Source: a virus (Duplodnaviria > Caudoviricetes). From it: a DNA stretch of 58,746 nt. The number at the start of each line of letters is the position of its first letter. Within the stretch, counting starts at the first letter, position 1. Positions 1-25,793 of this stretch are shown in pieces. The notes under the pieces are model-generated. The model had not been told where the DNA came from. It did no database searches and was given only the letters and a program-made list of their open reading frames with translations. Both the position numbers and the translations under genes were made by a program. Where the stretch lies: positions 1-58,746 of the IMG/VR virus record IMGVR_UViG_3300050029_000207; one strand, 5' to 3'.

Positions 1-127
1 CAAAATCTGGCCGGAATAATCCGCCTATCTGCCCGCAGTGCAAATCCGAACTCCGGCAAATGAGCACGCTCTGGTCAAAATGTCCTAAATGCGGCATCAG
101 AATAATGAACAGCGTGGCCGCGATGCC
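1..127. repeat. terminal overlap identical to 58620-58746 (circular assembly)
   Basis: 127-nt exact repeat at both ends; an ORF reads across the junction. Confidence 0.95.
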
Positions 128-232
128 CAGCGAAAAAAGCTGAGCCACCGCCGACTAAAATCTATGAATATAAATAACCTTCTCGGACAACTGCCATGCG
201 TAACGGCGGTTGGCTCCGGCGACTGGTTGGGC
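125..232 (-). mobile_element. attC: attC site (integron cassette recombination site)
   Basis: plus strand GCCCAGC-GAAAAAA-GCTGAGC...GCTCCGGC-GACTG-GTTGGGC; imperfect inverted repeat with R and L boxes; left core deviates (AGC for AAC). Confidence 0.85.
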
Positions 233-235
233 GTC

Positions 236-286
236 CGACTGCAAGGAGAGCGTCCAATAGGCGTTTCTTGCAGTGATTTGTTAAGC
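236..286 (-). mobile_element. attC: truncated attC (one arm only)
   Basis: GCAGTGATTTGTTAAGCGGCG identical to the right end of the 1328-1427 site. Confidence 0.6.
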
Positions 287-307: not shown

Positions 308-751
308 ATGAAAACTAAAATAGAACTGACTGACTCAATCCAAGACGTGCTGTTCAAAATGTCCGAAGGCAATCCCGGCGCTCTGACTGTGTGCCTGGGC
401 ATCCTCGAACACGGCGAGAAAATAGACCCCGACAACGCAATGGGCGGACTCGGAATAATCCTCTCGCTCGACACGCTTGGACTCTACGGCTCAAAAATCT
501 GGATGTTGTTCAGAGACGTGTGTGAAAGCGACCTCGCTCAAATGCTCGCCATGCTGCGTGGGTGGCAACTCGGAATGCTGTCAGAAACCCAAGTGCGTCA
601 CGCGGTCGAAAATCACGGCGATGGCATCAATGTCGCCGACATCTGCCAAAAAGTCACCGAACGTCTGCCGCGCTTCCAACTGAAGCCGCCGAACATAAAA
701 GCTCACCCCACTGCCGCGAAAGCGAGCGTGGACGGCACTGAAAATCTATGA
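308..751 (+). CDS. hypothetical phage protein (cassette cargo); alternative in-frame start at 164 inside attC
   Basis: ORF 89..751; A-rich leader before ATG 308; C-terminus PNIKAHPTAAKASVDGTENL encoded by the next attC arm. Confidence 0.75.
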   Translation: MKTKIELTDSIQDVLFKMSEGNPGALTVCLGILEHGEKIDPDNAMGGLGIILSLDTLGLYGSKIWMLFRDVCESDLAQMLAMLRGWQLGMLSETQVRHAVENHGDGINVADICQKVTERLPRFQLKPPNIKAHPTAAKASVDGTENL

Positions 752-762: not shown

Positions 763-918
763 TACGCCACAATGCAAGACCTCGCGGTGTGCTCGTTCAT
801 AAACGCCTCACGCATGGCCGAAGCCGGGCATCTGAAACAGGCATATATGGAAGCCGAATCAGGGCAACGCCAACTGAAAGCGGCGATAGGTGCAATTTCG
901 CCGAACGACCGCGCATGA
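748..918 (+). CDS. small hypothetical protein, 56 aa (MSETKYATMQDLAV...PNDRA)
   Basis: ATGA overlaps with both neighbouring ORFs; below ORF-track cut-off. Confidence 0.6.
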   Translation: MSETKYATMQDLAVCSFINASRMAEAGHLKQAYMEAESGQRQLKAAIGAISPNDRA

Positions 919-999
919 GCCACGCCGCACCAATGACCACCGCCCGCGATAGCGGACTGACGACGCCAATAGGCGTTGGCTCCGTGCGCTTGGTTAGGC
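900..999 (-). mobile_element. attC: attC site
   Basis: GCCGAAC-GACCGC-GCATGAGC...GCTCCGTGC-GCTTG-GTTAGGC. Confidence 0.9.
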
Positions 1000-1346
1000 G
1001 GCGTGCGACAAAACTCTCTGCGTCCGATGTCCTAATAAATCTGCGCGACTGGGCCTGGCTTGAGGCTCGCGTCGAGGCCGAACCGTCAAAGCAAAATATC
1101 TGGCTGGCTGTCCGCGACTGGGCGAACGGAATTGCCGCCAAAAATAAAATTGAACTTACCGCGCCCTGCCCCGAAAACCGCGAACCGCTGACAGACCGGG
1201 ATTTGAGTCTGTCGAATAATTTTGGGAGCGGCGAAAGCCTAGAGCGTGATAAATCTGGCGCAACTATCCATCCGCAAAGTCACCGTTTGGCAAAATGCTC
1301 GCAAGTCCAGATTGCTCCCAATCAGCCGCCTAACGACCGCGCATGA
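915..1346 (+). CDS. hypothetical protein (cassette cargo) starting inside attC
   Basis: ATG at 915 or 933 within attC, reading through GTTAGGC; ends PNDRA in next attC. Confidence 0.6.
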   Translation: MSHAAPMTTARDSGLTTPIGVGSVRLVRRRATKLSASDVLINLRDWAWLEARVEAEPSKQNIWLAVRDWANGIAAKNKIELTAPCPENREPLTDRDLSLSNNFGSGESLERDKSGATIHPQSHRLAKCSQVQIAPNQPPNDRA

Positions 1347-1427
1347 GCCACGCCGCATTAACGACTCCCGCCCGCGATAGCGGAACTGAATGCGCCAACG
1401 GCGGTTCGCAGCAGTGATTTGTTAAGC
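1328..1427 (-). mobile_element. attC: attC site (hybrid arms)
   Basis: GCCTAAC-GACCGC-GCATGAGC...GCAGCAGT-GATTT-GTTAAGC. Confidence 0.8.
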
Positions 1428-1453
1428 GGCGGAATCGTAACACTAAACAAAAA

Positions 1454-1831
1454 ATGAAAACTCAAACCCTCGAAGAATATCACGCCGGGCTAAAGGCTCA
1501 AGGCGTGCCAATCGAACACTGCGCGATGCGCTGCCCGATGTGCGGCACAATCCAAAGCGCGCAAGACCTGATAGCGGCTGGCGCTGGGAAGAACCTCGAT
1601 GAAGTCGAAAAGTATCTCGGCTTCTCCTGTGTCGGAAGATGGACACACCAAAAGCCACCGCCGAAGGAAAAGGGAACACAGCACGGATGCAACTGGACTC
1701 TGGGCGGACTGTTCCAGTGCCACGACCTCACCGTGATAACACCGGACGGCGCGAAGTGTCCCCGCTTCGAGCTATGCACGCCAGAGGAAGCGCAGGCGCA
1801 CATGCACGAGCGCGATACTGTAGCCGCTTAA
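1454..1831 (+). CDS. VVA0879-like Cys-rich phage protein (cassette cargo)
   Basis: CPMCG...FSCVGRW...GCNWTLGGL motifs; stop TAA lies in attC core GCTTAAC. Confidence 0.75.
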   Translation: MKTQTLEEYHAGLKAQGVPIEHCAMRCPMCGTIQSAQDLIAAGAGKNLDEVEKYLGFSCVGRWTHQKPPPKEKGTQHGCNWTLGGLFQCHDLTVITPDGAKCPRFELCTPEEAQAHMHERDTVAA

Positions 1832-1924
1832 CGAAAAAAGCTGAGCCACCGCCGACCTGCGACGTGAACCGCGATAGCGGAACGGACAGCGCCAACGGCG
1901 GTTGGCTCCGGCGACTTGTTAGGC
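1826..1924 (-). mobile_element. attC: attC site
   Basis: GCTTAAC-GAAAAAA-GCTGAGC...GCTCCGGC-GACTT-GTTAGGC; near-identical to 58228-58326. Confidence 0.95.
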
Positions 1925-1951
1925 TGCAACTCGTGAACTGACATAAAATCT

Positions 1952-2203
1952 ATGGAAAACAAAACTGAAACAACTCGGTTCCATGTTGAAAAACGAAACG
2001 GCATCATCGCCGTGTATGACATGAAACATCCGAAATATGATCCAGACAGGCAAGGCTGCCACTCTGACCTGCCGTGGGTAGTCGCGGCGTGGCACGGATA
2101 CAACGACGCCAAAGAAGGATGGTGTCTGTACGACTGGTAAATCTTAAAAGCTGAAAATCTATGTGCCATGCTAAATGCGAAGTGGCCTAACGATCCGAAC
2201 TGA
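1952..2203 (+). pseudogene. cassette cargo gene with probable premature TAA at 2138-2140 (or an intact 62-aa gene)
   Basis: frame continues ILKAENLCAMLNAKWPNDPN* into the next attC as neighbouring cassettes do. Confidence 0.5.
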
Positions 2204-2296
2204 GACACCCGCGACCTATGACTCTCGAAAAACCAGAAACCTTTACGGACAACCCGCAAGCGCCAACGCGGGTTGTCTCGAGTGAGTCTGTTAGGC
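2185..2296 (-). mobile_element. attC: attC site
   Basis: GCCTAAC-GATCCG-AACTGAGACACCCGCG...CGCGGGTTGTCTCGAGT-GAGTCT-GTTAGGC. Confidence 0.85.
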
Positions 2297-2601
2297 CGAC
2301 GGCAACATCGGAACAACTCTACGGAATATCGGAGCAGCCGAAACCGACCTGCCCGATGATAGACTCCGTGATAGCCGACCTGCAAAAGTGCTACCGCGAA
2401 ATGAATCGGTGGGAACGGCACAAAGACGACGCCGAATATCTGGCGCAAGTGCTGGACACCGTGGCGTGGATAATCGGAAACATGGAGCCAGGCCTAGAAA
2501 AAATCCGAGACAATGCAGACAAAATACGCGGATGGGGTCAGGAATGGAAAGACCTCGCCAAAGAACACGCGCCGAAACCGGACGAAACGGAGTCGGCCTA
2601 A
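2218..2601 (+). CDS. hypothetical helical protein (cassette cargo) starting inside attC
   Basis: ATG in attC loop; PTCPMIDSVI...IRGWGQEW; stop in next core. Confidence 0.75.
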   Translation: MTLEKPETFTDNPQAPTRVVSSESVRPTATSEQLYGISEQPKPTCPMIDSVIADLQKCYREMNRWERHKDDAEYLAQVLDTVAWIIGNMEPGLEKIRDNADKIRGWGQEWKDLAKEHAPKPDETESA

Positions 2602-2703
2602 CGAAAAAAGCTGAGCCACCCGCGACTAAAATCTATGCAAATCAATAACCTTCTCGGATTACTGACAGCGCCAACGCGCATTGGCTCCGGCGACTTGTTA
2701 GGT
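2596..2703 (-). mobile_element. attC: attC site
   Basis: GCCTAAC-GAAAAAA-GCTGAGC...GCTCCGGC-GACTT-GTTAGGT. Confidence 0.9.
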
Positions 2704-2729
2704 GCGGACGTGATAACTGAATAAAAATT

Positions 2730-3026
2730 ATGAAAATAAAAATACCGGCGGTGGAAAAAGAAGTCTGCGACATATGCGGACGCGATGGAATACTTGAAAC
2801 ATGCGTGGTGTGTGGAAACCGATACTGCCTGATCTGCCACTGCTATCTTCCGGGCTGCATGGTGCGCCCCGACGTGTGCAAGAAGTGCGACAGCCGCGCC
2901 GACGTGAATCAAATCTCGAAACGCTTCGGGCTGCTCATCCACGACCTATGCAAACAGCGCGAGGCCGAACTGAAACAACTAGCACCTAACAATGTTATTA
3001 GGCCAAACCCGGAATCAGATCACTAA
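2730..3026 (+). CDS. multi-CxxC zinc-binding protein (attI-proximal cassette cargo)
   Basis: CDIC, CVVC, CLIC, CKKC; reads through ACCTAAC into attI-like site. Confidence 0.75.
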   Translation: MKIKIPAVEKEVCDICGRDGILETCVVCGNRYCLICHCYLPGCMVRPDVCKKCDSRADVNQISKRFGLLIHDLCKQREAELKQLAPNNVIRPNPESDH

Positions 3027-3027
3027 C
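2984..3027 (-). mobile_element. attI: attI-like site
   Basis: minus strand GTTAGTG...GTTTGGCCTAAT-AACATT-GTTAGGT: core plus degenerate inverse core, no attC hairpin, at the array end. Confidence 0.65.
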
Positions 3028-3309
3028 ATGAAATACTGGCGCACAAGTGGTTATCGAAAGGCAGCAAGGCGAAGAGGGATTGAGGCTTACTATCGCAAAA
3101 AGGCAGCGTCGGAAGCCATTCCTGAAAACGAAAATGTGTGCAAGCCGAAAATTCGCCACTCATTGAAGACGATTTTGAAATTCGACCATGAACCGCAGAT
3201 GACTTTGACCGTTGACATTCTGCCGTGGGGCGGCTGGTCAATTTCTCCGACGGCAATCGGGAAGAAAATTCAACAGGCCATGATCGGCTATGCTGCTACC
3301 GCCGCCTGA
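3028..3309 (+). CDS. basic hypothetical protein occupying the usual intI position
   Basis: ATG 2 nt after previous stop; 93 aa; no tyrosine-recombinase motifs. Confidence 0.6.
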   Translation: MKYWRTSGYRKAARRRGIEAYYRKKAASEAIPENENVCKPKIRHSLKTILKFDHEPQMTLTVDILPWGGWSISPTAIGKKIQQAMIGYAATAA

Positions 3310-3406
3310 AATACCACCAAGCCACCGAAAGCAGCAAGATTGCCAGACAGATTTTGTCCAAATTCCAAGTGACCATTGACCATTCGTGCGGCGTCATAAA
3401 TTGATT

Positions 3407-3438
3407 GACCGGCGGCATCTCACCGCCGGTCTTTTTTT
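3407..3438 (+). terminator. rho-independent terminator where the two genome arms converge
   Basis: GACCGGCGG-catctca-CCGCCGGTC-TTTTTTT. Confidence 0.85.
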
Positions 3439-3541
3439 GTGCGCGCTCTTTTGTCGAGCATGGATCGTGCGCGCTTCCGAAAGGATGCCGGCGGCAGGGA
3501 AACCTTGCAAACCTACCGCCGGCCAGTTGCAACTGCGTCCC

Positions 3542-3787
3542 TCAGGACGAATTGGTTAATATCTTGCGGTGCATCCGCCAGTGCGTCTGGCAGCAATCCC
3601 GTTCAGTTTCTTCACATTTCATTTTGTTTTGACTGGACAGAACCACCCCGCAGCCTGGATGGATGCAGCGGCGGACGCGCTTGATCTTTTCCCACTGCGC
3701 GCCCAACCGCCGGGCAAGTTCCCAGTTGTGCGCCCGGTGCGCGGCGATTAGGCGGTTCCGCAAGTCTTTTTTCTCAATGGCCGTCAC
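3542..3787 (-). CDS. Cys-rich hypothetical protein
   Basis: GTG start overlapping upstream stop; CIHPGC...CCQTHW. Confidence 0.55.
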   Translation of the reverse strand: MTAIEKKDLRNRLIAAHRAHNWELARRLGAQWEKIKRVRRCIHPGCGVVLSSQNKMKCEETERDCCQTHWRMHRKILTNSS

Positions 3788-4299
3788 GGGTTTGCCGCTG
3801 GCGAATTGGTGGACACCGTTACCGGAACTGCACTTAGCGGCTGTCCATTGGTTCCAACGACTGAAATCAGCAGCGGGTTTGACGTGTTGATAGTTGGTTG
3901 ATTGTAAGCAGCCGCCGGAAGCAAGCCGGTTGCCGTGGAAGTCGAATCGTCGAAGTCTTGATTGAACCAACCAATATTGTCGTTCCCGTGACTTGCAAAT
4001 GGTGCGGTGTAGATTTGCCTGGTAGCGGTTGGAATGGTTAGCGTTTCGTGCGTGCCACGACCAAGGTCAAAGGTGGCGGGCGACATCGAGGAGCTTCCCA
4101 AGATATGCAGCCTGATACCGATGAACGCCTCCTTGTCCCGAACCACTTTGGTAAGCAGCGCATCCTGCTTGGCTGAGTGGTAATAGGTGCTATTCGTTCC
4201 GGTTGGCGAGGCGGATGTGGTTGATTTTGTGAGCGTGCGCGCGCAGCCGGACGTTGCGATAATGCACGCTAGAATTGCGATGATGGATAATTTCTTCAT
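3784..4299 (-). CDS. putative lipoprotein
   Basis: MKKLSIIAILACIIATSGC lipobox. Confidence 0.7.
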   Translation of the reverse strand: MKKLSIIAILACIIATSGCARTLTKSTTSASPTGTNSTYYHSAKQDALLTKVVRDKEAFIGIRLHILGSSSMSPATFDLGRGTHETLTIPTATRQIYTAPFASHGNDNIGWFNQDFDDSTSTATGLLPAAAYNQPTINTSNPLLISVVGTNGQPLSAVPVTVSTNSPAANP

Positions 4300-4575
4300 A
4301 GTTTCTCTTTCGGTTTAGCTCCCGCCGCGCATCACTTGTCCGCGACTCGGCTGTTCGGCACACGCCGAGAGTCGAGGCATTTGGAGCGGCTTGACGGATG
4401 CGCGGCGGAAATTGATCGGCACTTTTACAAAGCATCTGGCCCGCTTCGGACATCTCGACTTGTTGAAGCGGAAAAATAATGTGACAGCATTCGCACTCCT
4501 GCTCCATTGCGGACGGCGGCAGAAGAATCAGCGGCACCCTGTAGCCTCTGTAATCAACGATGGCGTGGTCTTGAA

Positions 4576-5070
4576 TCATTTTAGTAATTCCGGCCAGCGG
4601 TCGGGAACTTGAGACATAAATTGCGCGTGGTATTCCTTGAGTGTGGCAACCTGTTTCGGGTCGTGCCGATCCCATACAAATCCACCACCAGCCCGGACGC
4701 TCGCATAAATTGAATTGCGCGTGATCCATGTCGCCCCAAGCTCCTGTAGCGCGTCCAATAGAATCCAGTCGCAATCCTTGCGCGGGAACATTTCGGACGC
4801 ATACAGCCAATCGTGGAGCACATAGGCTGGGGCGTAGCGACCGTCCTTACGGTAGATATTTTGGAAAATCTGCGGGATGCTGCCATAGTCGGTTTCCCAT
4901 ACCGGACATATCACCATTTCCGGCAAGGTGCCAAGGCTCGACGGCGGGACGATGATCCTTGAACCGTCCGGCTGAACACTGGCGAACGGCTCTTCGAGCA
5001 ACCAGGTGTCGCCGTCGCGGAGTTCGATTGTCTCCGGCATCGTTAAAAAATCTGGTGAGTAGAGGAACAT
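4576..5070 (-). CDS. DUF1353-family protein
   Basis: TDYGSIP...AYVLHDWLY...DCDWILL...YASVRAGG. Confidence 0.8.
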   Translation of the reverse strand: MFLYSPDFLTMPETIELRDGDTWLLEEPFASVQPDGSRIIVPPSSLGTLPEMVICPVWETDYGSIPQIFQNIYRKDGRYAPAYVLHDWLYASEMFPRKDCDWILLDALQELGATWITRNSIYASVRAGGGFVWDRHDPKQVATLKEYHAQFMSQVPDRWPELLK

Positions 5071-5073
5071 AAA

Positions 5074-5397
5074 TCATTTGGCCGGCGGTTCCGGCGACAC
5101 CTTCAAGCTATCCGTCACCGACTGCGTGCGCGTGATGAATTGTGTGTCATCCCCGAACTGTCGTTCAACTTTTTTCGCAGCGCGAGAGAAAAACGCGAGC
5201 ATCGTGTTGCCCCAACTTAAGAACACCGCCAGCCACATCATTAATTTACCTTGCGTATCCATCGTGGAATAGTTTGTGTTTTGCAGCGATGCGAGAACTG
5301 CGCCGGTCAACGAGGTTGCCGTGAAGAAACAAAACCACGCAATCGCCATCCGCCATTCGATTATGGCCAGCTTTGCTTTGTTGATTTGGTCGCTCAT
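5074..5397 (-). CDS. putative holin
   Basis: 107 aa, two hydrophobic segments, charged C-terminus, end of late arm. Confidence 0.5.
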   Translation of the reverse strand: MSDQINKAKLAIIEWRMAIAWFCFFTATSLTGAVLASLQNTNYSTMDTQGKLMMWLAVFLSWGNTMLAFFSRAAKKVERQFGDDTQFITRTQSVTDSLKVSPEPPAK

Positions 5398-5939
5398 GGT
5401 TTTGACATCAACTTCGCCTCAATCAGCGACAACCGCTTATCGCTGTCAACCGTTCCGTGCGCGTTGATGTGGCTGATTAAAATCTCCAACGCTTCAAGTT
5501 TTGATTCGATTAACTCCACCTTGGTTGACGTAGCTGTGAATTTGTCGTTCTGCACCAGCACAGCAGCCGCTATTTTGCCGGCGGATTCCGCCGTCCGATC
5601 CACGTCCGCTTTCAACGCCTTGAGGTCCGAAGCATTGGACGCAACCTTGTCATTTTGAATCAAAACCGCCGTGGCTAATTTATCCGCCGACATTGCCGCA
5701 CGTTCGACATCGGCGGAAATAGGATGGATCGCCGCCGCCCACAGGCACCCAATGAGCGTCAGCAAGAAACCACAAAGCGCAATCAGCGTCATCCAATCCG
5801 TCTTGCCAGAGCGGTTGAGCGAGTCCTGAATGTCGCGCAGTGCTTTCCACATGCCGGTCAATTCCACGGTGATGTTATCCACCTTGGTCTCAACCTTTGT
5901 CAGCCGTTCGTTCCCTTGATTCGTTTCCATAATTTCCAT
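5394..5939 (-). CDS. coiled-coil membrane protein (lysis region)
   Basis: ERLTKVETKV coil, one TM, internal repeat (AVLIQNDK/AVLVQNDK). Confidence 0.6.
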   Translation of the reverse strand: MEIMETNQGNERLTKVETKVDNITVELTGMWKALRDIQDSLNRSGKTDWMTLIALCGFLLTLIGCLWAAAIHPISADVERAAMSADKLATAVLIQNDKVASNASDLKALKADVDRTAESAGKIAAAVLVQNDKFTATSTKVELIESKLEALEILISHINAHGTVDSDKRLSLIEAKLMSKP

Positions 5940-6028
5940 AATTTAGTTTTCCGGTTGCGCCGCCTGGTAATCAAGCAGTGGTTTGGGTTGCTGTTGAACG
6001 TGCATCGTTTCTTTTTGGGCTTCATTGC

Positions 6029-6697
6029 TCATGGTGATGGAACGGTTACAACTTTCGTCGGGGTTAATTTCAGTCTGAAAAACTTTCCGCTGTCCACCGG
6101 CGACAGCAGTCCATTGGTCGGAAACTGAAACGGCATCCAGTCCGTCAGGTTAGTCGTGCTCTCACTGGACATGCGCAGCATCGGAGTGTTAGTCAGCACG
6201 ACCTCGCGGACAAGGCTTGTGAAACCCATGCGCCCGTCCGGCGTCACCACGACGGCAACGATGTTGAAATAACTTGTGCCTGTCGGCAGCGCGTCCTGAT
6301 TGTAACTGGCGTTGCTGGTTGCACCGACCGGCATCCATTCGCCGTAAAGCCCGGACTGCGGCCCGCGCACCAGCCAGTAGCCAACCACGGCGCCGTCAGT
6401 TGTTGACGCTTCTTTCCACGAGAATGAAAGGTTGGTTTGCGCTTCAACGCCAATGCTCAAAACCATCATTCCACAGGTCAGAATCAAGCCAAGCCGCTTC
6501 AGTTTCCTGCGCCAGATTTTTGCGAGACTGGCCGCGCCGATCCTTGCCCTGAACGCCGGCCCGTTCGCCAAACCGTCCAGCATCTTCGGCACGGCCCTCA
6601 GCAGCTTCGTTTGCGCATCGCTCTTGTCCATCCACTGCCGGGCTATCGCGCACTGGTTGTGGTAAGCTTCGCTCAGTTGTTTTTCTTTGGCGCTCAT
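6029..6697 (-). CDS. exported Fn3-like domain protein
   Basis: internal signal-like segment ending VEA-QTN; LSFSW...VVGY...GLYG; C-terminal ESTTNLTDW...FFRL. Confidence 0.6.
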   Translation of the reverse strand: MSAKEKQLSEAYHNQCAIARQWMDKSDAQTKLLRAVPKMLDGLANGPAFRARIGAASLAKIWRRKLKRLGLILTCGMMVLSIGVEAQTNLSFSWKEASTTDGAVVGYWLVRGPQSGLYGEWMPVGATSNASYNQDALPTGTSYFNIVAVVVTPDGRMGFTSLVREVVLTNTPMLRMSSESTTNLTDWMPFQFPTNGLLSPVDSGKFFRLKLTPTKVVTVPSP

Positions 6698-6951
6698 TCA
6701 CTTTTCTTTTCGAGGCTGATCCTACCCTGCGGCCACGATGCCGGGTCGCGGTTGTCGGGCCGTTCGTATTCCCAAAACACATCACCAGTCAGCGCGTTCG
6801 TGACTGGCCGTTGATACCAGACCGCTCCTGCCCCGTCTTCATAGCGCGTCCAGCCGTTGTGAGTAGTCGCGCACCCGCTCAACAGCAGGCACGCAAGCGG
6901 CAGATACCATATGCCATCGGAGAGCCAAAATATGAGGCGGATGAGTTTCAT
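6694..6951 (-). CDS. putative lipoprotein
   Basis: LACLLLSGC lipobox; ATGA coupling. Confidence 0.6.
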   Translation of the reverse strand: MKLIRLIFWLSDGIWYLPLACLLLSGCATTHNGWTRYEDGAGAVWYQRPVTNALTGDVFWEYERPDNRDPASWPQGRISLEKKSE

Positions 6952-9506
6952 CAGTAGGCGATTACGTTGGTAATTATACCACCACCGATTTGAAAACTCA
7001 CACCGTGCGGCCCGACAGCGTTGGTGATGATTCCCGCCACAGTGCCGCTCCAACCGGCTTGTGCGCCAACAGCAAACCCGCTGGCGGTGACGGTGCCAGA
7101 ACTGATAAGCGCGGCTACGGAAACAGTCCCGTTATTCGATATGGACATCGCGTTAAATGGTCCGACGTTTTCTTTCCATGTTTTGAACAACCAGCCATAC
7201 GATGGCGTTAAGGTTTCTGTGACAGCAAAAATACCCTCTGATTCGTCCCCGATTGCCGGACTGACGACTGACAGAACTTCGTCCGCTGCCCCTACGGAAA
7301 ATGTCGGTGCCAAAACTTGGAAGCGTCTGGTGGCATTAGCAAGCCCGACTCCGACATTGCCGTTTGTGGTGCTTAGAACAGTTCCCTTCAACAGGTTTCC
7401 TGGAATTGCCCCATTCGCGTCGGCAATTACAGCCAAATCCGGCCGTATTGTGCCGGCCCCATGATCAAGCAACAGGCCGTTCCCCCCAAGCAAAGTGTTC
7501 CAGCCCACACTTGTCGCTGTCGCGTTTGCACTAACAGTAATCGCCGAATCGGCGGTGCGGGAGTTGTAACCAGTGAAGGTGTTTTTCCAGATTTTAGCAC
7601 CTGTAACATATCCAAGGTAAATGCTGTTTGTGCAGTAATCCCAGTTGAGCAAATTGTTTTCAATAATTGGGTCTGTGACCAGAACGGAAGCCGTGCCATT
7701 CAGCATAAGCCAGGATTGATTGGTTGCTCCAGCATTGCACTGAATGTCGTTTGCAGCAATGACAGGCTTCAGGTTGCGCCAAACGGTCAGTGCGGGCGCG
7801 GCACCAATGTAATTGTTTTTTGAATAAACGAACCCGCCGGCACCCGGCACCATGTCAACACTTGTTCCAAGTCCGTTGGGGAAACTGTTGTCCTCGATTA
7901 TCAGGGTGTCGCTGACGTTCGTTACGGTTATTTTATTTAGAAGAAAAGTGTTGTGCTTAATGCTGAAGCAAGTGACCTGCGCGTCAGCATCGGCAGAAAT
8001 AAAAACATTGCAGTCTTGGCCGAAATAGCAGTTTTCAATCGCACTCTCAATGATGCTGCCACTCGCAGAACCGTTAATTGAAATTGCGTTTGTAACTGTT
8101 CCAAAGAAACTGAAACCAGAAATTGACTGGCGACTGAATGAGCCACAGTTCGTGATTGTAATAATGTTAGTCACGTAGTAGCCAACAAAGGTGGCGTTAT
8201 CTCCGACCAGAGTATTTGCGTTCGTCAGCACAAGTCCATTCGTGACGATTCCATAAGTCCCCTTTGGAAAAAAGAGTGTGCAGTTTTTATAGTTGTTCAA
8301 AAACCACTGAGTGGCTGGACCATCATTTGCAATGCCATCACCTTTTACCGAGCCAAAAGATTTGATATTAACCCATGTGTTGGTGATGAGGTTTGCTGCG
8401 TTTTGATTCGTAACTCCAGCCCCATTCCCACTAAACGAGGTCGCCGACACTGTGCCCAGTGTCGCGTTTCCGCCATTCGTCACCGATGCTGAAAGGATGT
8501 TTGAATCTTGCGCCGTCACACCGTTGGCCGCTTGGACGCCGGTCAAGGCCGAGCCATTGTTCGCCGCGAGCAGAGACAGCGCGGCGTTCGTCGGCTGAAA
8601 CGAGTTGGTGGCTCCAGTCCCGGAGATCATTTGGTTCACGGATACGCCGTGGTCGTTGGTTCCTGCGCCCACGTTGCCGATGTAATTTCCCGCCGCGCTG
8701 ATGGATGCTTTGCCGCTGGCGAAACTGGTGATGCCGTTGGACGCGAAACTGACCCCGTTCACGGAAGCGTCCCCATTCTCGTCAAGCAAGAAAATGCCGT
8801 TCGCGTTTTCCAACGCCACCTGGTTTGGATTGGCGGTTGTGCCGAGCCGCAGTTTCGTTCCCCATTGGTCCGGCCCGATAATGGTGGTGTAGTTGGTGCT
8901 GTGGCCGTCAATCGTCCCGGTGTTTTTCAGCGTGATGACCCCCGTGGCGTCCGTCACCACGCTCGAATCAACCGCCAGCACATTCGTCCCGCCGACGTTG
9001 GTCGAAGTCAGGCCGGTGCCGGCGGAAATGATAGAAGAAGAATATACCGCAAGCTTTGAATCAATTTGCGACATCGTATAGTAATTTGTTGCCGGATCAA
9101 TTGGCAGTTTCCCACTTCCTATCAGCGATGCAATTGGAACCGTGTTCGACAATCCCGCCGGAACGGTGACAGTCCAGGCAGTTCCACTGCCATCATTTGC
9201 ATAAAGCTTGTATCTTCCCCACAAGATGTTGGTGAATGAGAAATATCCGCTTGTTGATTCTTGAGCAAGAATAGGATCATCGCTAACAAGATTCCCATTC
9301 CATGTCCTGTTGACTGGATATATGATCTCAAGAACCATTTGAACATTTGTGTTAGGCTGAAGTCCAAAGTTGGTTGAGCGGCCAGATAGGACATTTGCCT
9401 GCGCTCGGCACACGAGGCAGGAGGCAAGCACAAGCAGGAAAACTGAAAATGCTTTCATTGGATAAATTTGCCTCAGTTTCAATGATAAGGAAAGTTTTTT
9501 GTTCAT
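6951..9506 (-). CDS. tailspike-like beta-helix (pectate lyase superfamily) protein with signal peptide; possible start 9458
   Basis: VNIKSFGSVKGDGIANDGPA...LFFPKGTY; Asn-ladder repeats; MKAFSVFLLVLASCLVCRAQA. Confidence 0.75.
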   Translation of the reverse strand: MNKKLSLSLKLRQIYPMKAFSVFLLVLASCLVCRAQANVLSGRSTNFGLQPNTNVQMVLEIIYPVNRTWNGNLVSDDPILAQESTSGYFSFTNILWGRYKLYANDGSGTAWTVTVPAGLSNTVPIASLIGSGKLPIDPATNYYTMSQIDSKLAVYSSSIISAGTGLTSTNVGGTNVLAVDSSVVTDATGVITLKNTGTIDGHSTNYTTIIGPDQWGTKLRLGTTANPNQVALENANGIFLLDENGDASVNGVSFASNGITSFASGKASISAAGNYIGNVGAGTNDHGVSVNQMISGTGATNSFQPTNAALSLLAANNGSALTGVQAANGVTAQDSNILSASVTNGGNATLGTVSATSFSGNGAGVTNQNAANLITNTWVNIKSFGSVKGDGIANDGPATQWFLNNYKNCTLFFPKGTYGIVTNGLVLTNANTLVGDNATFVGYYVTNIITITNCGSFSRQSISGFSFFGTVTNAISINGSASGSIIESAIENCYFGQDCNVFISADADAQVTCFSIKHNTFLLNKITVTNVSDTLIIEDNSFPNGLGTSVDMVPGAGGFVYSKNNYIGAAPALTVWRNLKPVIAANDIQCNAGATNQSWLMLNGTASVLVTDPIIENNLLNWDYCTNSIYLGYVTGAKIWKNTFTGYNSRTADSAITVSANATATSVGWNTLLGGNGLLLDHGAGTIRPDLAVIADANGAIPGNLLKGTVLSTTNGNVGVGLANATRRFQVLAPTFSVGAADEVLSVVSPAIGDESEGIFAVTETLTPSYGWLFKTWKENVGPFNAMSISNNGTVSVAALISSGTVTASGFAVGAQAGWSGTVAGIITNAVGPHGVSFQIGGGIITNVIAY

Positions 9507-9509
9507 GAT

Positions 9510-11738
9510 TTATTGTTCAATCTGCGAATCAACCACCGTCACGCTCGCCCCGGTGCCGGAAACGTCCGTGATGGAATTGATCGTGTTGGGATTCACCGGC
9601 AGCGACCAGAGGTTTGTCGTCGTTGCAACGGCCAAGAATCCCAGCGGAGTCAGCGTATTTGTTCCACGGCCTGGTCGCTGAATGCGAAAGGCGGGCGTGC
9701 CGGTTTCCGCCGAAACAAGCTGGAGCGAGAAAACCCAGGTGCCAACCGTTGCGCCGTTCGTGATGGTCGCCGTTGTGCTACGCTGGGAAATTGTCAGCGG
9801 CTGCGGATCGTAAATCGAAACGGAAATTGTTGGTTGGCCGGCGAAGGTGTAATCGCCGATCAAGGTTGGGGAATACGAGCCGGGATAATTCGTTGCTCCA
9901 AAGACCATTGTCGCGTCATTCGTCACCATCAGGTAGCCAAGCAGATTGCTTGAAACTGCACCAGGTCCGATATTATAGGTTCCCGGCATCAACAGCTTGT
10001 AGCCGCTGGAAACATTCACAAATTCTCCGTTGTAGTTGTTTGTCCAGATGCCGTTGTAGTTGGTTTCAAAGCCGGTGCCGTTTCTTGCGAACAGCTTGCT
10101 GAATGTGCGCTGGTAGCTTGATCCAATTCCGTTTGGAGAATTGATGGCCACGCCATTAAGCATTACCGGCCCACCATCAAAATTAAATCCGTTGGCGGCA
10201 TAAGCGTTGAATGTGTTGTTGGTCAGGCTGGCGTATGGAGCACCGCCGCTGTCCGGGATGGGGGTGCCGTCAGACCAAACAAACGTCTCGTCGTGAAGCG
10301 CGCGAGCAGTGTTGCCTAGCGCCGTGCTATGCAAGCCGGATGCGGTGTTGCCATACCCGATGGATACGCTGCCACCACCCGATGCGATAGATACCCCTAA
10401 AGCGGTCGCGTAACCCGCCGACGCCGACGACTGACCGGCGGCGAAGGCGTAAGAACCAGATGCGTGAGAGAAGCCAAAGGCCGTGTCGTCAATCGAAGGG
10501 TATGAATCCACAGTCGAATTTGCCGACCGGACGCTAATCCCAAGCACGGACTCCAATCCGCCGTAAATGTTCGTAATCAAATTTCCGGGATCAAATGGCG
10601 GATTGCCTCCAGACAAAGGAACGCCATTGACGGAAAATCCAAAAGTTGAATCCACGTTGCCAGAAACCTTCAGCGCATTGGTGCCGGGATCGTTGATGTT
10701 GATGGCTACGCCGTTGCTTGAGTGAATCAGGAAAGTGAAATCTTTCGCCGACGTGAAAGTTCCGGCGGTGCCATCGTTCCAAGCCCAGACTCCGCTGTTT
10801 CCGCTGATGTTGTTGCTCACGCCGCACGCAAATGAGTTGTTGGCGAAGGTGGTCGAACTGTCAATCAGGTTGTTTCTCCCGCCGACGATAGTTGAGTAAT
10901 CGGCATGGCCGAGATTTATGTGGCTGTTGATGTAGTTGTTGTTGCCGCCAAAGATTGCGCTGCCCTCGACGTTCTGCGAGATGTCGTTGGACGACCCGCC
11001 AAGCGTCGCGGTCCACCATTCGCCGTAAATCTGGCCATTATTAAATCCAATGTTCACGCCACCTTTGGCAGCTCCACCAGAATTTCTCTCGGATGACATT
11101 GACAACACGTCCAGTTCGTTCGATGGGTCGTAAGCGTGTGTTTTGCTGAATGAGATTGTAATCGCGTTGTGCAGACTGGTGTTTGTGCCAGTGCCGTTCA
11201 AAAGCGGAATGGCGTTGGATGCAATGCTGCCGGCAAGTGAAGCGATGACATTTGACCCGGTGGCCGACAGTCCGGCCAGATTCGTGTTGATGGCCGAGTA
11301 AAGCAGGTTGGACTGCGCGGCGGTCAGGCCGCTGCCGGTTCCGCCACTGGGCGCTGCCCAGTAGTAACCCGTCGCGTCGTTGGTCTTATAGGGAATCTGC
11401 CCGTTCGCCGTCGCACCGTTCGTTTTAACCACCGATGTCAGCAGCGCGAAGTTGCCGTTGATCTTGGCGAACGCGCCCGGCAGCGAGTCGCCCTTCTGGA
11501 TGTTGTTCGTTTTAACTGACTGTGCCGGCCCTGATACCACCGCGTTGGTGATGACGAGGACACTGTTGGAATACACGTTTGCATTCGTCATCACGAAAGC
11601 CGTGAGTGTGTTGGTCAGGCTGTTGGTCGTCAGCGTGGACGTATCCACAACCTGAAACGTGAGTCCGGCGCGCATCTTCGTTGCCAGCAAAAGAATCACC
11701 AGCGTTATCAGAATTAATAGTGTTTTTTTCATAATCAA
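9510..11738 (-). CDS. fibre/adhesin-like protein with signal peptide and YadA-head-like repeats
   Basis: MKKTLLILITLVILLLATKMRA; repeats ASGSYAFAAG/ASGGGSVSIG/ASGLHSTALG. Confidence 0.7.
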   Translation of the reverse strand: MIMKKTLLILITLVILLLATKMRAGLTFQVVDTSTLTTNSLTNTLTAFVMTNANVYSNSVLVITNAVVSGPAQSVKTNNIQKGDSLPGAFAKINGNFALLTSVVKTNGATANGQIPYKTNDATGYYWAAPSGGTGSGLTAAQSNLLYSAINTNLAGLSATGSNVIASLAGSIASNAIPLLNGTGTNTSLHNAITISFSKTHAYDPSNELDVLSMSSERNSGGAAKGGVNIGFNNGQIYGEWWTATLGGSSNDISQNVEGSAIFGGNNNYINSHINLGHADYSTIVGGRNNLIDSSTTFANNSFACGVSNNISGNSGVWAWNDGTAGTFTSAKDFTFLIHSSNGVAININDPGTNALKVSGNVDSTFGFSVNGVPLSGGNPPFDPGNLITNIYGGLESVLGISVRSANSTVDSYPSIDDTAFGFSHASGSYAFAAGQSSASAGYATALGVSIASGGGSVSIGYGNTASGLHSTALGNTARALHDETFVWSDGTPIPDSGGAPYASLTNNTFNAYAANGFNFDGGPVMLNGVAINSPNGIGSSYQRTFSKLFARNGTGFETNYNGIWTNNYNGEFVNVSSGYKLLMPGTYNIGPGAVSSNLLGYLMVTNDATMVFGATNYPGSYSPTLIGDYTFAGQPTISVSIYDPQPLTISQRSTTATITNGATVGTWVFSLQLVSAETGTPAFRIQRPGRGTNTLTPLGFLAVATTTNLWSLPVNPNTINSITDVSGTGASVTVVDSQIEQ

Positions 11739-14700
11739 ATCATCGGTCCGCCGCCATCACCGCCTGCGCCTTCATTGCCGTCGTCGCCCGCGCCACCTGT
11801 GCCGCCCGCGCCAGTCGTGACGTTGCCGCCGCCAAGCTGCCCGCCAATCAGCGTCAACACGTTCGCCAGATCGTCGTAAAGCTCCCGGAATAGCGGGAAG
11901 ACAACTGAGGACTGGATGGGATATTTCAGGACATTTGTAACAGCCTCACTCCACCAAACTGGATCGCTAAGGGCATGATTCAAATTCCCGGCTTGCTGGC
12001 TTTGGTATCCAACATCAAGTGCGTCTTTGGCAAAATCATCGAGCGCATACGTCTTGGCCGCGTCCCATAATTGCGTGCCGGTGGGATAAAGTATTTCCGG
12101 CTTTGGCCATGCCCAGCCAGCCTTGGAAACAGCCATCATGTTCCTAAAGCTCAAGGCGTATTGGAAGAATGTTGGAACAGGCTGGCTGTAAAGCAAAGTT
12201 TCAGAACCTTCGGGTTGATCTTTAAATGGAGACTGCCCAGTCCCATACATTCTGTTCCAAAATATCGGCTGAAAATTCGCCCACGCCTCAAGCATGATTT
12301 GCGCGCTGCATTGGTAAATCAATTCGTTCCCGCCCACGACCGGCAGGAACACCTTCACGTCGCCGCTGTCCCGCGCCGTGGCCGGAATGCTGATGGTGAG
12401 GTTTGTGGTTCCGTCCGCCAGTTTCAACGGCGTGAACGTCGTCGTGTTTGCGCCCGCATTGTAGATGTTCTGGCCCAGCGTGATGGTCAGGGCGGGGCCG
12501 GACAACGGCACATAGGAAATGCCGTTGGGATTCAGGATCGGCAACCGGGTCGCCCGCACGCTGAAGATGCAGTAACCCATCTTCGGAATGGGCTTGGCGC
12601 TGATCGGATCGCCATTACCCCACGTCCCGGCGAACTGAGAAAAATTACCCGGTGTGCCATTGATGTTGAAGCTGAAACATTCCGCCGCGTCCGCAAGATC
12701 GCGAGCCGTCCACCAAGTTGCATTCGGCGGCGTGTTCCCGGTGTTTCCGCCGGCCTTGCTGGTGTAAGCATTGCCATCACCTATTTGCGCGGGTTCCTTG
12801 TCGGCATAGGTCTTGGTAACGTCGAAATACGGCGTGGCGGGCGGGAAGTAATTTCTTTCCGGCACGCCTATGTCCATTTCCGTGTAGAGGTCGTATTCTA
12901 CCGCGCCCACGCCGGTATTATAGACCGCAAAAGCAAATCCGGTTCCTGAGACGGTTGCAAGGTATGACCCGCCACCGTCCGGGTCTATGGTCACTTCATT
13001 GTTGGTTGTTTGGAAATCGAAACCCACCGGCAAAGTCGGGTAGCCTGATTGCTTCACCAAGATGTTCAGCGCGACGGCAAGCGGCTCGCCCCATTGCCAC
13101 ACTCCGGTTCCCGCGTTCCATTTCCAGCCCGGAACGGTCCCCGCCTGCACCAGCCTGAGGTAAATCTTGGTGATGCTTGGCGAAACGGCGATGTTGTAAT
13201 AATTCAGTGCTCCACCGGCCACTATTCGATTCCGATACACCGTGACGGTTGGCGCGGCCATTTGGGCGCGTGAGGCGTTGAAACCAAGATTCCACGGAAC
13301 AAAATCAGTGTCCCGGCGCGTAAGCCACTTGGCCGCGCGCGTGGTGATGCCCGGCTTGACGCTGTTCACGCCATCAACCAGCGTCTCTGTGGTTGGACTA
13401 AGCTGGATTGGTGCAGCCTGCCGCATGGAACTGGCCCACGGAGCAGCGGATGGATTAGGAGATTGTCGCCCAATCATCATGCCGTTCCCAGCGACGGCAA
13501 TATTTAAGTAGATCGGCCCAAGCTCTGACGACTCGAATGCAGAAACTATTTTCCCAATGTAAGGCGGAATGTCCGCGTCAATGAAGACGTTGTTGCCGGG
13601 AGATGGGAGGGTGATGGCCGTCCAGATGCCTTTCACTGAAGGATCGGAAAGAATCCACACATGCTCCGCCACTGTTCCGTTAAGAGAAAACGCATCGCCG
13701 TCTGGAACATCCACGCACAAGATTGCTTTCACTGCCGAGGCCGGATGCAGTCCGTTGACAACAACCTGCGTTGATGCCGTTGAAAACACCATGTCGGCGG
13801 TTAATGCTACATTAGCGATTGTATATGCCAGTGTTGCATTTCTGGTAAGCGTGTCAGAGATTGCAGAACTTGGAGGACCTCCGATTGTGATGCTTGTCGC
13901 ATCGGCGGCAACTATGATATGGCCGCCGGCACCACCAGTATTAAGAGTCCAGTCGGTGCCGTAGCAGTGAAGCGGAACACCGTCCCAACCACTGAAATTG
14001 CCAGCTACCGTATAATGGCCGGAGCCATCATAAGACGATCCACGCGGAATAAGGTTTAATCCTATGTAGTAGGTAAAGCTTCCAGATGATGAAATAGAAG
14101 TGCTTGAACTACCTATTAGAATATAATGGTTAACTCCACCAAGAGGATCGTTGATAATGGACAGGCTTGGGGCCGTCACACCAGACGCAACAACAACAAA
14201 ATCAGCGGTGGTGGGCGTTCCGCTGCAAATAAAGTGCAGCCACGATGTCAGCTTCAGTGTTCCGCTTCCAGAAAGCGTATAATTGAACACACCATCACCC
14301 GCCAAAACAACCCGCAGTGCCGTATCAATCGTCAATCCCGCCGGCATGTCTGCCGCGACGAAATCTACTTCCTTGAATAATGGAAGGCCGGTTGCCCAAT
14401 ATTCAGTGACGAATCCACCGCCAGAAAATACTTCGACAGCCCTTGTCAATTCCCCGCGCAATGCTCCGCGATAGGGTATTGCAGTGTAGTGCAGCGGATA
14501 TGTGTCATCGTCGCTGACTCCCACCACCCACGGCCCGGAATTTACGCTGGCCGTATTCAAGTAAAGCGACTCGCCACCGGGAAAGGCCGCACCATTGAAA
14601 CCAAGCAGCAGCGCCATTGCATCCCCGCGAATACGGTTCAACTCGCAAAGGTGGTTGCTTGTGGACAGCGCCAGCGTGACCGTGACCGGCATTCCAGACA

Positions 14701-15160
14701 AGCCTTGGAACGTCACCGTCGTCCCCGCTGTCAGGTGGAGATTGTTGGTGGAGTAATCATAGATGAACGCCCCTTCTCCCCATAATGAAACCACGGTGGG
14801 CGGGGGAACGGTCATTGAAATGTCGTTCGCGCCCAGCACGAGGTTGTAATCACCAGCAGAAGCAACCGTCAAAGAATAATTTCCACTGCCGTCATAAACC
14901 GCCGTGGGCGACACCAGCGGAACACTGACAACCGGCGCGAACGAATAAGGCGGCTGCGGATTCACGGGAATTCCCGGATTGATGTCCTCGCTGATTATGC
15001 CGGATGCCAGAGCGCTTTGCCATTTCGAGTAGGCATTATTAAGAAAAGGAGCGCCTGGGGTCGTGTAGAACTGCGCATGAATCGCGTTCACAATCGGCAG
15101 CAAGACCGCATTGGCGTCTGCCGCCAGCGCGTCAAGTTCGGCTTGGGTGATGTAGTTCAT
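11735..15160 (-). CDS. large tail/receptor-binding protein with CBM5/12-like modules
   Basis: start MNYITQ overlaps upstream stop; FDVTKTY...PPNATWW and WDAAKTY...DPVWW motifs. Confidence 0.65.
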   Translation of the reverse strand: MNYITQAELDALAADANAVLLPIVNAIHAQFYTTPGAPFLNNAYSKWQSALASGIISEDINPGIPVNPQPPYSFAPVVSVPLVSPTAVYDGSGNYSLTVASAGDYNLVLGANDISMTVPPPTVVSLWGEGAFIYDYSTNNLHLTAGTTVTFQGLSGMPVTVTLALSTSNHLCELNRIRGDAMALLLGFNGAAFPGGESLYLNTASVNSGPWVVGVSDDDTYPLHYTAIPYRGALRGELTRAVEVFSGGGFVTEYWATGLPLFKEVDFVAADMPAGLTIDTALRVVLAGDGVFNYTLSGSGTLKLTSWLHFICSGTPTTADFVVVASGVTAPSLSIINDPLGGVNHYILIGSSSTSISSSGSFTYYIGLNLIPRGSSYDGSGHYTVAGNFSGWDGVPLHCYGTDWTLNTGGAGGHIIVAADATSITIGGPPSSAISDTLTRNATLAYTIANVALTADMVFSTASTQVVVNGLHPASAVKAILCVDVPDGDAFSLNGTVAEHVWILSDPSVKGIWTAITLPSPGNNVFIDADIPPYIGKIVSAFESSELGPIYLNIAVAGNGMMIGRQSPNPSAAPWASSMRQAAPIQLSPTTETLVDGVNSVKPGITTRAAKWLTRRDTDFVPWNLGFNASRAQMAAPTVTVYRNRIVAGGALNYYNIAVSPSITKIYLRLVQAGTVPGWKWNAGTGVWQWGEPLAVALNILVKQSGYPTLPVGFDFQTTNNEVTIDPDGGGSYLATVSGTGFAFAVYNTGVGAVEYDLYTEMDIGVPERNYFPPATPYFDVTKTYADKEPAQIGDGNAYTSKAGGNTGNTPPNATWWTARDLADAAECFSFNINGTPGNFSQFAGTWGNGDPISAKPIPKMGYCIFSVRATRLPILNPNGISYVPLSGPALTITLGQNIYNAGANTTTFTPLKLADGTTNLTISIPATARDSGDVKVFLPVVGGNELIYQCSAQIMLEAWANFQPIFWNRMYGTGQSPFKDQPEGSETLLYSQPVPTFFQYALSFRNMMAVSKAGWAWPKPEILYPTGTQLWDAAKTYALDDFAKDALDVGYQSQQAGNLNHALSDPVWWSEAVTNVLKYPIQSSVVFPLFRELYDDLANVLTLIGGQLGGGNVTTGAGGTGGAGDDGNEGAGGDGGGPMI

Positions 15161-15582
15161 GTCATCCAAGCTCCCATGACCGGCGCGTTTCCAGACAGGC
15201 TTAACCAGTAGAGATTCCCGGTGTCTGGCATGGTCGGATTCTGACCGGTGTGATCTATCAGGCAAAGGAACTCGCCCGCATTCGCTCCCGCCCGGATGAC
15301 CGTCCGCTGGTGCGCCTTGTATGATCTGGTTGGGTCCCATTCCCCGGTGTCGAGCGAGTCGCTGGAACTTCCTCCTGATCCACCAAGGATTCTTCTCCTG
15401 ATCTTTTCAACTGATCTTGCAAGATTCCTTATCGCCTCGCTATCAGAACTGTTTTGATTGTTTACCTTGTTAGATCTGATATATTGGCGAAGAACAGAAT
15501 CCGGTTCTCGCAATGAAGTGAGTCCGCTCAACTCGTGCGCAATTGGTAGAGATACGTTTCTTTGTGGGCTAACCTTTATCAT
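15157..15582 (-). CDS. tail protein with CBM5/12-like C-terminus
   Basis: GEWDPTRSY...FLCLIDHTGQNP...YW. Confidence 0.6.
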   Translation of the reverse strand: MIKVSPQRNVSLPIAHELSGLTSLREPDSVLRQYIRSNKVNNQNSSDSEAIRNLARSVEKIRRRILGGSGGSSSDSLDTGEWDPTRSYKAHQRTVIRAGANAGEFLCLIDHTGQNPTMPDTGNLYWLSLSGNAPVMGAWMT

Positions 15583-15583
15583 A

Positions 15584-16888: not shown

Positions 16889-16891
16889 AAA

Positions 16892-19326: not shown

Positions 19327-19521
19327 TTACTTTTTGCTTTCGCGGTATTGCTTCATCAGTTTATTATATTCAGCCTTCACGTAACCGGGCGACTTGCGCT
19401 CTTCGCCGCCACCCCACATGCTGACCTCGTTCTCGCGTGCCCAGTTACTGTAGGCAAAACCCTGAACACCGTCCAGTTCCCAGTCAATGAACTCCGGCGA
19501 CCAACCGAACACCTTCATCAA
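19327..19521 (-). CDS. tail assembly chaperone, frameshift extension (GT-type)
   Basis: -1 frame open from slippery site; FGWSPEFI motif. Confidence 0.55.
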   Translation of the reverse strand: MMKVFGWSPEFIDWELDGVQGFAYSNWARENEVSMWGGGEERKSPGYVKAEYNKLMKQYRESKK

Positions 19522-19547
19522 CCTGCACTTTTTGTCGAACAGCCACC

Positions 19548-20081: not shown

Positions 20082-20092
20082 AATTCAATTGG

Positions 20093-20575: not shown

Positions 20576-20605
20576 ATTTTATATTTGGTTGATTGTTTCT
20601 TCGGT

Positions 20606-20977: not shown

Positions 20978-21010
20978 AATTTTGTATTTTTGTTGTTGTT
21001 GTTGTTGTTT

Positions 21011-24932: not shown

Positions 24933-24950
24933 GTTTCATTTGCCTGAATG

Positions 24951-24995: not shown

Positions 24996-25013
24996 CAACC
25001 GCCGGGCAAGTTG

Positions 25014-25748: not shown

Positions 25749-25793
25749 AATTCGTTATTCGTTGAGATTGATTGATGTTTGTTGATTGTTGGT

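Follow-up and report, generated by a model that had tools for sequence, protein, structure and literature searches.

A probable integrase-less integron platform, with predicted attC sites of a Verrucomicrobial family, in a complete phage genome

The present analysis concerns what is probably an integron platform without an integrase of its own, found in a virus of the Caudoviricetes (Duplodnaviria) represented by IMG/VR record IMGVR_UViG_3300050029_000207, positions 1 to 58,746, the whole of which is referred to below as the window. The window represents the complete genome of a phage, which has terminal repeats and lacks a tyrosine recombinase. Bases 1-127 are identical to 58620-58746, an exact terminal overlap of 127 nucleotides (nt) recorded as direct terminal repeats, and the completeness of this 58,746-nt record is rated 100%. 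The window encodes a large terminase, a portal, a head morphogenesis protein, a DNA polymerase, a primase-helicase, a clamp and an exonuclease (phrog_2139); within it no tyrosine recombinase (0 matches to PF00589) and no TIGR02249 integron integrase were found. Seven hairpin repeats of about 100 nt, all on the plus strand, occupy 58224..2707 directly to the left of an attI-like site, which is followed by an open reading frame (ORF) for a basic protein of 93 amino acids (aa). The core features are as follows, with attC denoting predicted sites, bit scores taken from the covariance model described below, and L209, L162 and L207 being host loci.

2984..3008, plus strand: attI-like site, with R-box-like ACCTAAC, a 6-nt spacer and inverted L-box-like ATTAGGC
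3028..3309, plus strand: basic Arg/Lys-rich ORF, 93 aa, from a conserved, phage-only family; placed and oriented as intI is in hosts
58224..58330, plus strand: attC copy A, 112.8 bits; 99/99 identical to the host attC at L209:1590-1688
121..236, plus strand: attC copy B, 94.9 bits; followed by a right-arm half copy at about 233-290 (repeat family D15)
896..1003, plus strand: attC copy C, 83.5 bits
1324..1431, plus strand: attC copy D, 84.3 bits
1822..1928, plus strand: attC copy E, 113.6 bits; 98/99 identical to a host attC in L162
2181..2300, plus strand: attC copy F, 82.4 bits
2592..2707, plus strand: attC copy G, in bottom-strand orientation, 93.3 bits; 91.6% identical to a host attC in L207

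The attI-like site had been proposed in a first-pass annotation, which read the minus strand as GCCTAAT-AACATT-GTTAGGT. This motif is present at 3003..2984, and on the plus strand it comprises ACCTAAC (2984-2990), AATGTT (2991-2996) and ATTAGGC (2997-3003), with crossover predicted between A2989 and C2990 (G|TT on the minus strand). It lies within the final codons of a Cys-rich ORF (2730-3026) and 38 nt 5' of the ATG of the basic ORF (3028), and a further ATG at 2992, inside the motif, opens a longer frame of the basic ORF. The layout with which it was compared, that of attI1, reads CCCTAAA-ACAAA-GTTRRRY and has accessory upstream boxes, with intI lying beyond it and pointing away. Two such extra GTT boxes had been placed 18 and 37 nt upstream of the core; additional minus-strand GTT triplets do exist (3009-3007 and 3026-3024), but they stand 19 and 36 nt from 2990 and are not conserved across the 17 related loci described below. 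Similarly, the claim that no attC hairpin is present holds for 2984-3309 but not for its surroundings, as the array of seven adjoins the site. The attC covariance model returned nothing at 2984-3003 at E<=10 with filters off, and as DNA 2955-3015 folds at only -3.5 kcal/mol (z +0.44), with 132 of 200 shuffles folding equally well and only a trivial 5-bp hairpin formed. By itself, the consensus GTTRRRY occurs in the window no more often than expected (89 times against 99.7). However, GTTAGGY is clustered, with 11 of its 12 window matches falling in 58228..58553 plus 993..2990, and these are the ends of the repeat of about 100 nt.

A covariance model (R1) was built from the seven window copies, and the window was searched with it with filters off. 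It finds exactly these seven copies, at 82-114 bits and all on the plus strand, and elsewhere in the window only weak partial matches (52659, 52992, 57634). In each copy a terminal stem encloses an internal loop, an inner stem and a variable loop of 40-60 nt, and the RYYYAAC/GTTRRRY terminal stem is present in all seven (GCCTAAC...GTTAGGC or one-base variants); attC sites are defined, in the available text of PMC5027507, by an inverse core RYYYAAC and a core GTTRRRY that pair at the ends, a definition with which these copies agree. On the plus strand the 3' arm of the copies carries an invariant unpaired T, situated in the inner stem, together with one more unpaired base; unpaired bases of this kind, again following what could be consulted of PMC5027507, were used here as the mark of the attC bottom strand, by which the plus strand of the window is predicted to be the bottom strand. 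Among 32 copies from the window and from eleven further viral loci, the partners pair in 88.7% of cells, and in 19 of the 27 pairs both sides have changed; the covariation score is 0.341, compared with 0.05-0.08 for slid controls, and was reached by none of 500 shuffles. Judged from sequence, the seven repeats thus appear to have attC anatomy, namely paired core ends, an imperfect hairpin kept by covariation and bottom-strand unpaired bases. The window also has the make-up of a cluster of attC sites lacking integron integrases (CALIN), that is, at least two attC sites close together and no integron integrase nearby. An Rfam scan of the window yielded a tRNA-model match only and no attC-type family, and the repeat was present in 0 of 17 loci of exonuclease relatives. 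An exact 15-mer scan of viral contigs returned 55 stretches, mostly by chance, of which 12 held the repeat.

The same repeat is found in bacterial genomes. When bacterial genome stretches were searched with a degenerate right-arm 22-mer, more than 120 were matched, and 61 of the 80 matches listed are labelled Verrucomicrobiota; among the matches listed, same-strand arrays reach 14 copies in 8 kb. Ten array stretches sit in metagenome-assembled genomes (MAGs) titled "uncultured Bifidobacteriaceae" (L074, L084, L087, L112, L123, L130, L134, L135, L149 and L151), titles that probably reflect a labelling or binning problem rather than true hosts. TIGR02249 was detected above its curated cut-off in 5/5 repeat-bearing genomes and in 0/14 control genomes. 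In all eight host intI loci, from MAGs of the Verrucomicrobiae, the array lies directly 5' of intI in one polarity (102 plus-orientation matches), so ordered that repeats in model orientation are followed by a gap (attI) and then by intI on the same strand. Window copies A, E and G each have a closer match in a host than anywhere among the other window copies, identity between copies of the window being only 70-96%. Summed over contigs, the word depth of the repeat amounts to thousands to tens of thousands in four metagenome runs, which fits a very abundant host repeat. The window repeats may accordingly be assigned, by their likeness to these arrays, to the attC family of the chromosomal integrons of Verrucomicrobiae, and Verrucomicrobiota, which the first-pass annotation had guessed correctly, is the host phylum predicted from the repeat matches. 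An integron integrase is present in 60 of 201 sampled genomes of the class, or about a third. Many class integrases (L228-L256, from the same set) lie within about 1 kb of a contig end, as would be expected if attC arrays interrupt the assemblies, and published counts of complete integrons in such MAGs are therefore likely too low. Two host integrases have unusual frames, that of L209 bearing a long N-terminal extension (a 527-aa open frame) and that of L210 consisting of the C-terminal 241 aa only and being separated from attI by another ORF.

Position, polarity and core of the flagged site are those of an attI. The last cassette of each of the eight host loci terminates in ..YYTAAC, after which come an A, a short AT-rich stretch and often a small dyad, with intI 50-130 nt or more away. 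The order and polarity of the window (array, flagged site, basic ORF) are the host's (array, attI, intI, in 8/8 loci), which bears out the earlier remark that the 93-aa ORF has the position and orientation of intI. The site thus stands at what in the hosts is the integrase-proximal end of the array, and its crossover triplet has the polarity of the attC bottom strands; where an attI would adjoin the 5' end of intI, however, the neighbour is an unrelated 93-aa ORF. With a host-only, sequence-only attI profile made from the eight sites, no stretch of the window scores better, on either strand, than 2985-3008 (11.1 bits, E 0.029, by a rough calibration); as a positive control, the same profile was applied to 25 additional regions upstream of intI and located attI in 5 of them, 53-124 nt ahead of the gene (E 2e-8 to 0.03). 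A 15-mer consensus of the host attIs h209 and L237, a pattern picked after the window had been inspected, has a single window match, at the flagged site with 1 mismatch, where 0.02 would be expected and 2 of 100 shuffles match. Independently, a phage-only site profile from which the window was left out gives 2985-3030 as its top match in the window (E 0.031).

The basic ORF belongs to a family with invariant motifs that is clearly coding. Its relatives number eight among 5.8 billion proteins, and its loci comprise 10 viral and 7 metagenome ones; these 17 loci, from about 11 lineages, form the comparison used here and make 18 cases together with the window. All 17 have a ..YAA|CA(A/T)(A/T)G(C/T).. 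site some 40 nt ahead of the ATG of the ORF, and 3' of it the relatives share a conserved AAAATCA...ATG that looks like a start context. Arrays matched by R1 in the same orientation lie upstream of the ORF in 7 of the 10 viral loci, and in two of the other three the sequence extends less than 1 kb upstream. Downstream, the 2 kb next to the ORF are non-homologous between lineages, barring duplicates and one pair at 30% identity, so that the site and the array are the only conserved neighbours of the ORF. Relatives also mark the predicted crossover. L218 and L219 are identical for more than 100 nt rightward from the C of the AA|C triplet and unrelated leftward, and the same break at AA|C separates L222 from L215, L216, L221 and L223, with a left side of only 22 nt in L222. 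Immediately left of the crossover, six bases differ from locus to locus within the attC R-box range, as expected if they are part of the inserted cassette. In three relatives of the Cys-rich cassette protein, conservation extends as far as the R-box codons; the tails beyond are unrelated and differ in length.

The basic protein would appear to be a fixed part of the platform. What it does is most likely, although this is a guess, as is the accessory factor suggested in the first-pass annotation, to act at or near attI as a small nucleic-acid-binding factor. No Pfam or PHROG family was assigned to it; a Phage_endo_I match, found in 1 of 16 members at E 0.015, was treated as noise. An AlphaFold2 model is poor (predicted local distance difference test, pLDDT, 63.8; predicted template modelling score, pTM, 0.27), a Foldseek search of the PDB with that model gave no match at E<=0.001, and in an ESM Atlas search the first hits, at 0.84, fall below a meaningful level. 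The ORF had earlier been considered a possible remnant of the host integron platform. A relation to IntI was sought, but hhalign against host IntI returned a probability of 0.2%, and a BLASTP match of only 16 residues (E 0.019) was not upheld by the profile comparison. In 401 genomes from the host phylum no member of the family was found, in a search without a positive control inside those genomes; together with the missing Pfam and PHROG matches and the comparison with IntI, this indicates that the ORF is not a remnant of the host platform. The further suggestion that the phage might integrate through the site is likewise unsupported, as the ORF family is absent from those 401 genomes and no prophage junction was seen.

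Between the attC copies lie small plus-strand ORFs, with gene starts within some of the repeats. The cassette ORFs are listed below, together with the hairpin that closes the plus-strand module and the three weaker repeat-like elements.

2730..3026, plus strand: Cys-rich ORF, 98 aa, in the cassette adjoining the site; reads through the crossover, its last 12 residues coming from the attI side
2218..2601, plus strand: cassette ORF, 127 aa; stop TAA inside the R box of attC G
1952..2140, plus strand: cassette ORF, 62 aa
1454..1831, plus strand: cassette ORF, 125 aa, phrog_32023; stop TAA inside the R box of attC E
308..751, plus strand: cassette ORF, 147 aa
58559..143: cassette ORF, spanning the 127-nt terminal overlap
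58347..58544, plus strand: cassette ORF, 65 aa, PF12843
57766..58215, plus strand: cassette ORF, 149 aa, Cys-rich
3407..3441, plus strand: intrinsic-terminator-like hairpin (3407-3431) with a T run, closing the plus-strand module
57634..57746, plus strand: weak, degenerate attC-like element after the exonuclease gene, 12.1 bits, E 0.78
52992..53124, plus strand: second-subfamily attC-like element whose loop holds a gene start, 14.3 bits, E 0.21; a like element occurs in host L208
52659..52794, plus strand: another attC-like element of this second subfamily, 14.1 bits, E 0.24, supported also by its fold

The orientation of the ORFs differs between phage and host. In 40 intervals of phage arrays the longer ORF is on the plus strand, the direction of phage transcription, in 17, on the minus strand, which is canonical, in 6, and unclear in 17; in 94 intervals of host arrays the corresponding figures are 6 plus, 60 minus (canonical, pointing away from intI) and 28 unclear. 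In L219 (= L064), in the region of 10980-11200, a site-adjacent cassette ORF has the canonical host orientation, starting just past the crossover and stopping in the attC R box, from which it follows that phage arrays hold both orientations. A direct repeat of about 65-75 nt joins 52661-52735 and 687-760 (both plus strand); within it lie the left arm of an attC-like element, the start context AAAATCTATG and the opening five codons (MSETK) of two distinct ORFs, and it looks like a recombination scar or a shared leader.

The contiguity of the locus was also considered, since the related loci were assembled from metagenomes and attC repeats cause assemblies to break. In an independent assembly from run X1, which is possibly the source sample, 2675-3400 lies on a single 42,290-nt contig along with phage genes, and depths of 19-23 for unique pieces in the X1 contigs are compatible with one genome without being proof of it. 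One cassette with flanking attC parts (window 900-1336) is covered by contigs of runs X2, X3 and X6, from other studies, with 0 to 16 differences per piece. These three runs cover only about 900-1336 and neither the other unique cassette parts nor 2737-3400, and such gaps in coverage were not taken as evidence. The many joints from 1924 to about 2596 were not used, since their sides are 20-27 letters at 90% likeness and they are probably attC-attC neighbours from other organisms. The lack of a tyrosine recombinase extends to 5/5 other platform-bearing records (88-100% complete), in which PF00589 had 0 matches while controls matched in 14/14. The large terminase of the window was unmatched in these five records, in a search without a positive control, so that unrelatedness is not shown.

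The explanation that we consider probable is that the phage carries an integrase-less integron platform which is served in trans by the IntI of its host. The anatomy of the repeats and site, the identity of the repeats with host attCs, the shared polarity, the conservation of the platform and the breakpoints in relatives were all observed. In this model the accessory module of the phage would be an integron cassette array that ends in the flagged site as the attI of the platform, and the site would act as a double-stranded R box, spacer and L box at which cassettes are inserted between 2989 and 2990. During infection, host IntI could act in trans upon the phage attI and the attC bottom strands, and attC-attC recombination by the same enzyme might excise, reorder and swap cassettes, while early transcription of the phage would select those cassettes whose ORF lies in its direction. 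That host IntI carries out the recombination is what we infer, and any part played by the basic ORF would be of the same standing.

Several observations nevertheless weigh against this model. The orientation of the phage ORFs is opposite to the host norm, which means that the phage arrays are not simple copies of host arrays; no cassette protein of the window was matched in the fetched host loci, and ORF 1454-1831 was found in 0 of the 401 genomes (again in a search without a positive control inside them). Five other viral arrays (L025, L046, L050, L053 and L028) have no such site within 2.5 kb of their last attC. The site is located in coding sequence, at the end of ORF 2730-3026, and part of its conservation could be a coding or translation-start signal. 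A larger host attI profile (13 sequences, nhmmer) did not return the flagged site at E<=10, the eight-sequence host profile with default filters gave 0 matches in 17 viral loci, and the phage-only profile did not pick out host attIs; from these failures, the likeness to host attI is seen to rest on about 20 nt and one host subtype. Finally, the breakpoints come from relatives, and recombination in the phage of the window itself was not observed.

An alternate scenario, which we regard as improbable, is that the locus is a dead relic, a piece of a host integron (cassettes and attI, cut before intI) taken up once by illegitimate recombination, with site and hairpins now inert and the basic ORF merely a neighbour. 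It would account for a phage with no integrase and for cassette proteins that are not found in host loci, and fragments of chromosomal integrons in phages have been described in the available text of PMC9892861. However, a single uptake is difficult to reconcile with a site and ORF that recur in 17 loci with differing upstream cassettes and with downstream 2 kb that are non-homologous in all but one pair (about 11 lineages), or with homology that ends exactly at AA|C in two pairs. In addition, the window attCs are up to 99/99 identical to host copies and only 70-96% identical to one another, and the orientation bias of the ORFs points to selection inside phages.

Quite improbable, in our judgement, is that the hairpins serve the phage as terminators, as RNA-stabilising structures or as portable homology for its own exonuclease/annealase, in which case shuffling would be homologous recombination and the site a conserved leader of the basic ORF. 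The phage does encode an exonuclease (phrog_2139), the hairpins lie between co-transcribed genes and end up in the mRNA strand, genes start inside some of the repeats, and the AAAATCA...ATG 3' of the site resembles a start context. However, such a function leaves unexplained the same repeats in host arrays beside intI, the lone, hairpin-less R-box half before the ORF in 18/18 cases (the 17 loci and the window), the homology break at AA|C where no long homology exists, and the kept bottom-strand asymmetry of unpaired bases. That the site is a chance palindrome in coding sequence unrelated to integrons is very improbable, for although GTTRRRY shows no enrichment, only a trivial hairpin forms at the site and an ORF encloses it, the site also terminates the array, agrees with a host attI subtype, is the best match of two independent profiles and is conserved in 17/17 loci.

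The model of a platform served in trans by host IntI may be extended into a more ambitious one, which is tentative and which we hold to be rather doubtful. Otherwise unrelated Verrucomicrobia phages would keep a working integron without an integrase, in which attI and the basic protein of about 90 aa recruit or steer host IntI to capture, reorder and trade early accessory genes, many of the cassettes being made by the phages and oriented for phage transcription.

The platform may be compared with several known systems. The L and R boxes and DR1/DR2 of attI1 are named in the available text of PMC9892861. With known attI classes the flagged site shares an R box with an AAC/GTT crossover triplet, a short spacer, an inverted L-box-like heptamer and a place at the inner end of an array; it differs in that no integrase gene adjoins the phage site and the proposed accessory boxes are not conserved, and its binding and cleavage are predicted only. 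Sedentary chromosomal integrons, as represented by the Verrucomicrobiae MAGs L203-L210, have the same attC family, the same polarity of array, attI and next gene, and a cassette spacing of a few hundred bases, whereas the phage element lacks intI, has an unrelated 93-aa protein in its stead and carries ORFs in reversed orientation. The promoter-stem-loop repeats of T4-type phages are phage-specific and are linked to modular shuffling by homologous recombination. They resemble the present repeats as intergenic hairpins between small early phage genes that are linked to gene shuffling, but the repeats described here would be the attC sites of a host integron.

The closest precedent is the phage CALIN. 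Clusters of attC without an integron integrase, with arrays in the same direction, have been reported in phages, virulent phages included, and use of the host integrase has been proposed (Qi et al., 2023, PMC9892861, in the text available). The present element is similar in having attC sites and cassettes without intI in one direction. However, as far as the available text of that paper allows comparison, it is distinguished by an attI-like array end followed by a conserved small phage protein, by the recurrence of this platform in at least 11 distinct phage lineages with different cassettes, by attCs of a Verrucomicrobial family that are up to 99/99 identical to host copies, and by the location of most ORFs on the attC bottom strand. 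Insertion of cassettes outside att sites by an integron integrase (bioRxiv 10.1101/2022.09.11.507474, as far as its text was available) similarly provides an entry route into a genome without an integron of its own, but the route proposed here is apparently focused on one conserved attI-like site and not scattered as in the available part of that report. Literature searches, judged from their listings, returned no published description of such an integrase-less platform.

Two further features of the window stand apart from the array. At 56691-56782 (plus strand) the tRNA model of Rfam scores 34.9 bits over 92 nt (gathering score 29), and ARAGORN finds no tRNA anywhere in the window; a tRNA-like element is one possibility for this stretch, a tRNA carrying a long arm or an insert another. 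At 53411-54169 (plus strand) about 30 near-identical 15-nt DNA repeats code for a 252-aa pentapeptide-repeat protein (PF00805, E 1.9e-45), which may be a DNA mimic.

Integron components have been reported in phages only recently, and mostly as a few predicted attC sites. The present element goes further in that the whole accessory module of a complete phage appears to be organised as cassettes of the attC family of its host, with an attI-like end and a conserved non-integrase protein in the place of the integrase, an arrangement repeated across many phage contigs with different cargo. The flagged site and a Verrucomicrobial IntI offer a testable pair with which this may be pursued. If host IntI acts on the platform, phages and the chromosomal integrons of an abundant soil and peat phylum would share one gene-exchange system, which would bear on the origins of cassettes and on the movement of phage counter-defence and host defence genes. 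Should the more ambitious, doubtful version of the model also hold, phages would be both users and producers of integron cassettes, and the small basic protein would represent a new kind of attI-associated factor.

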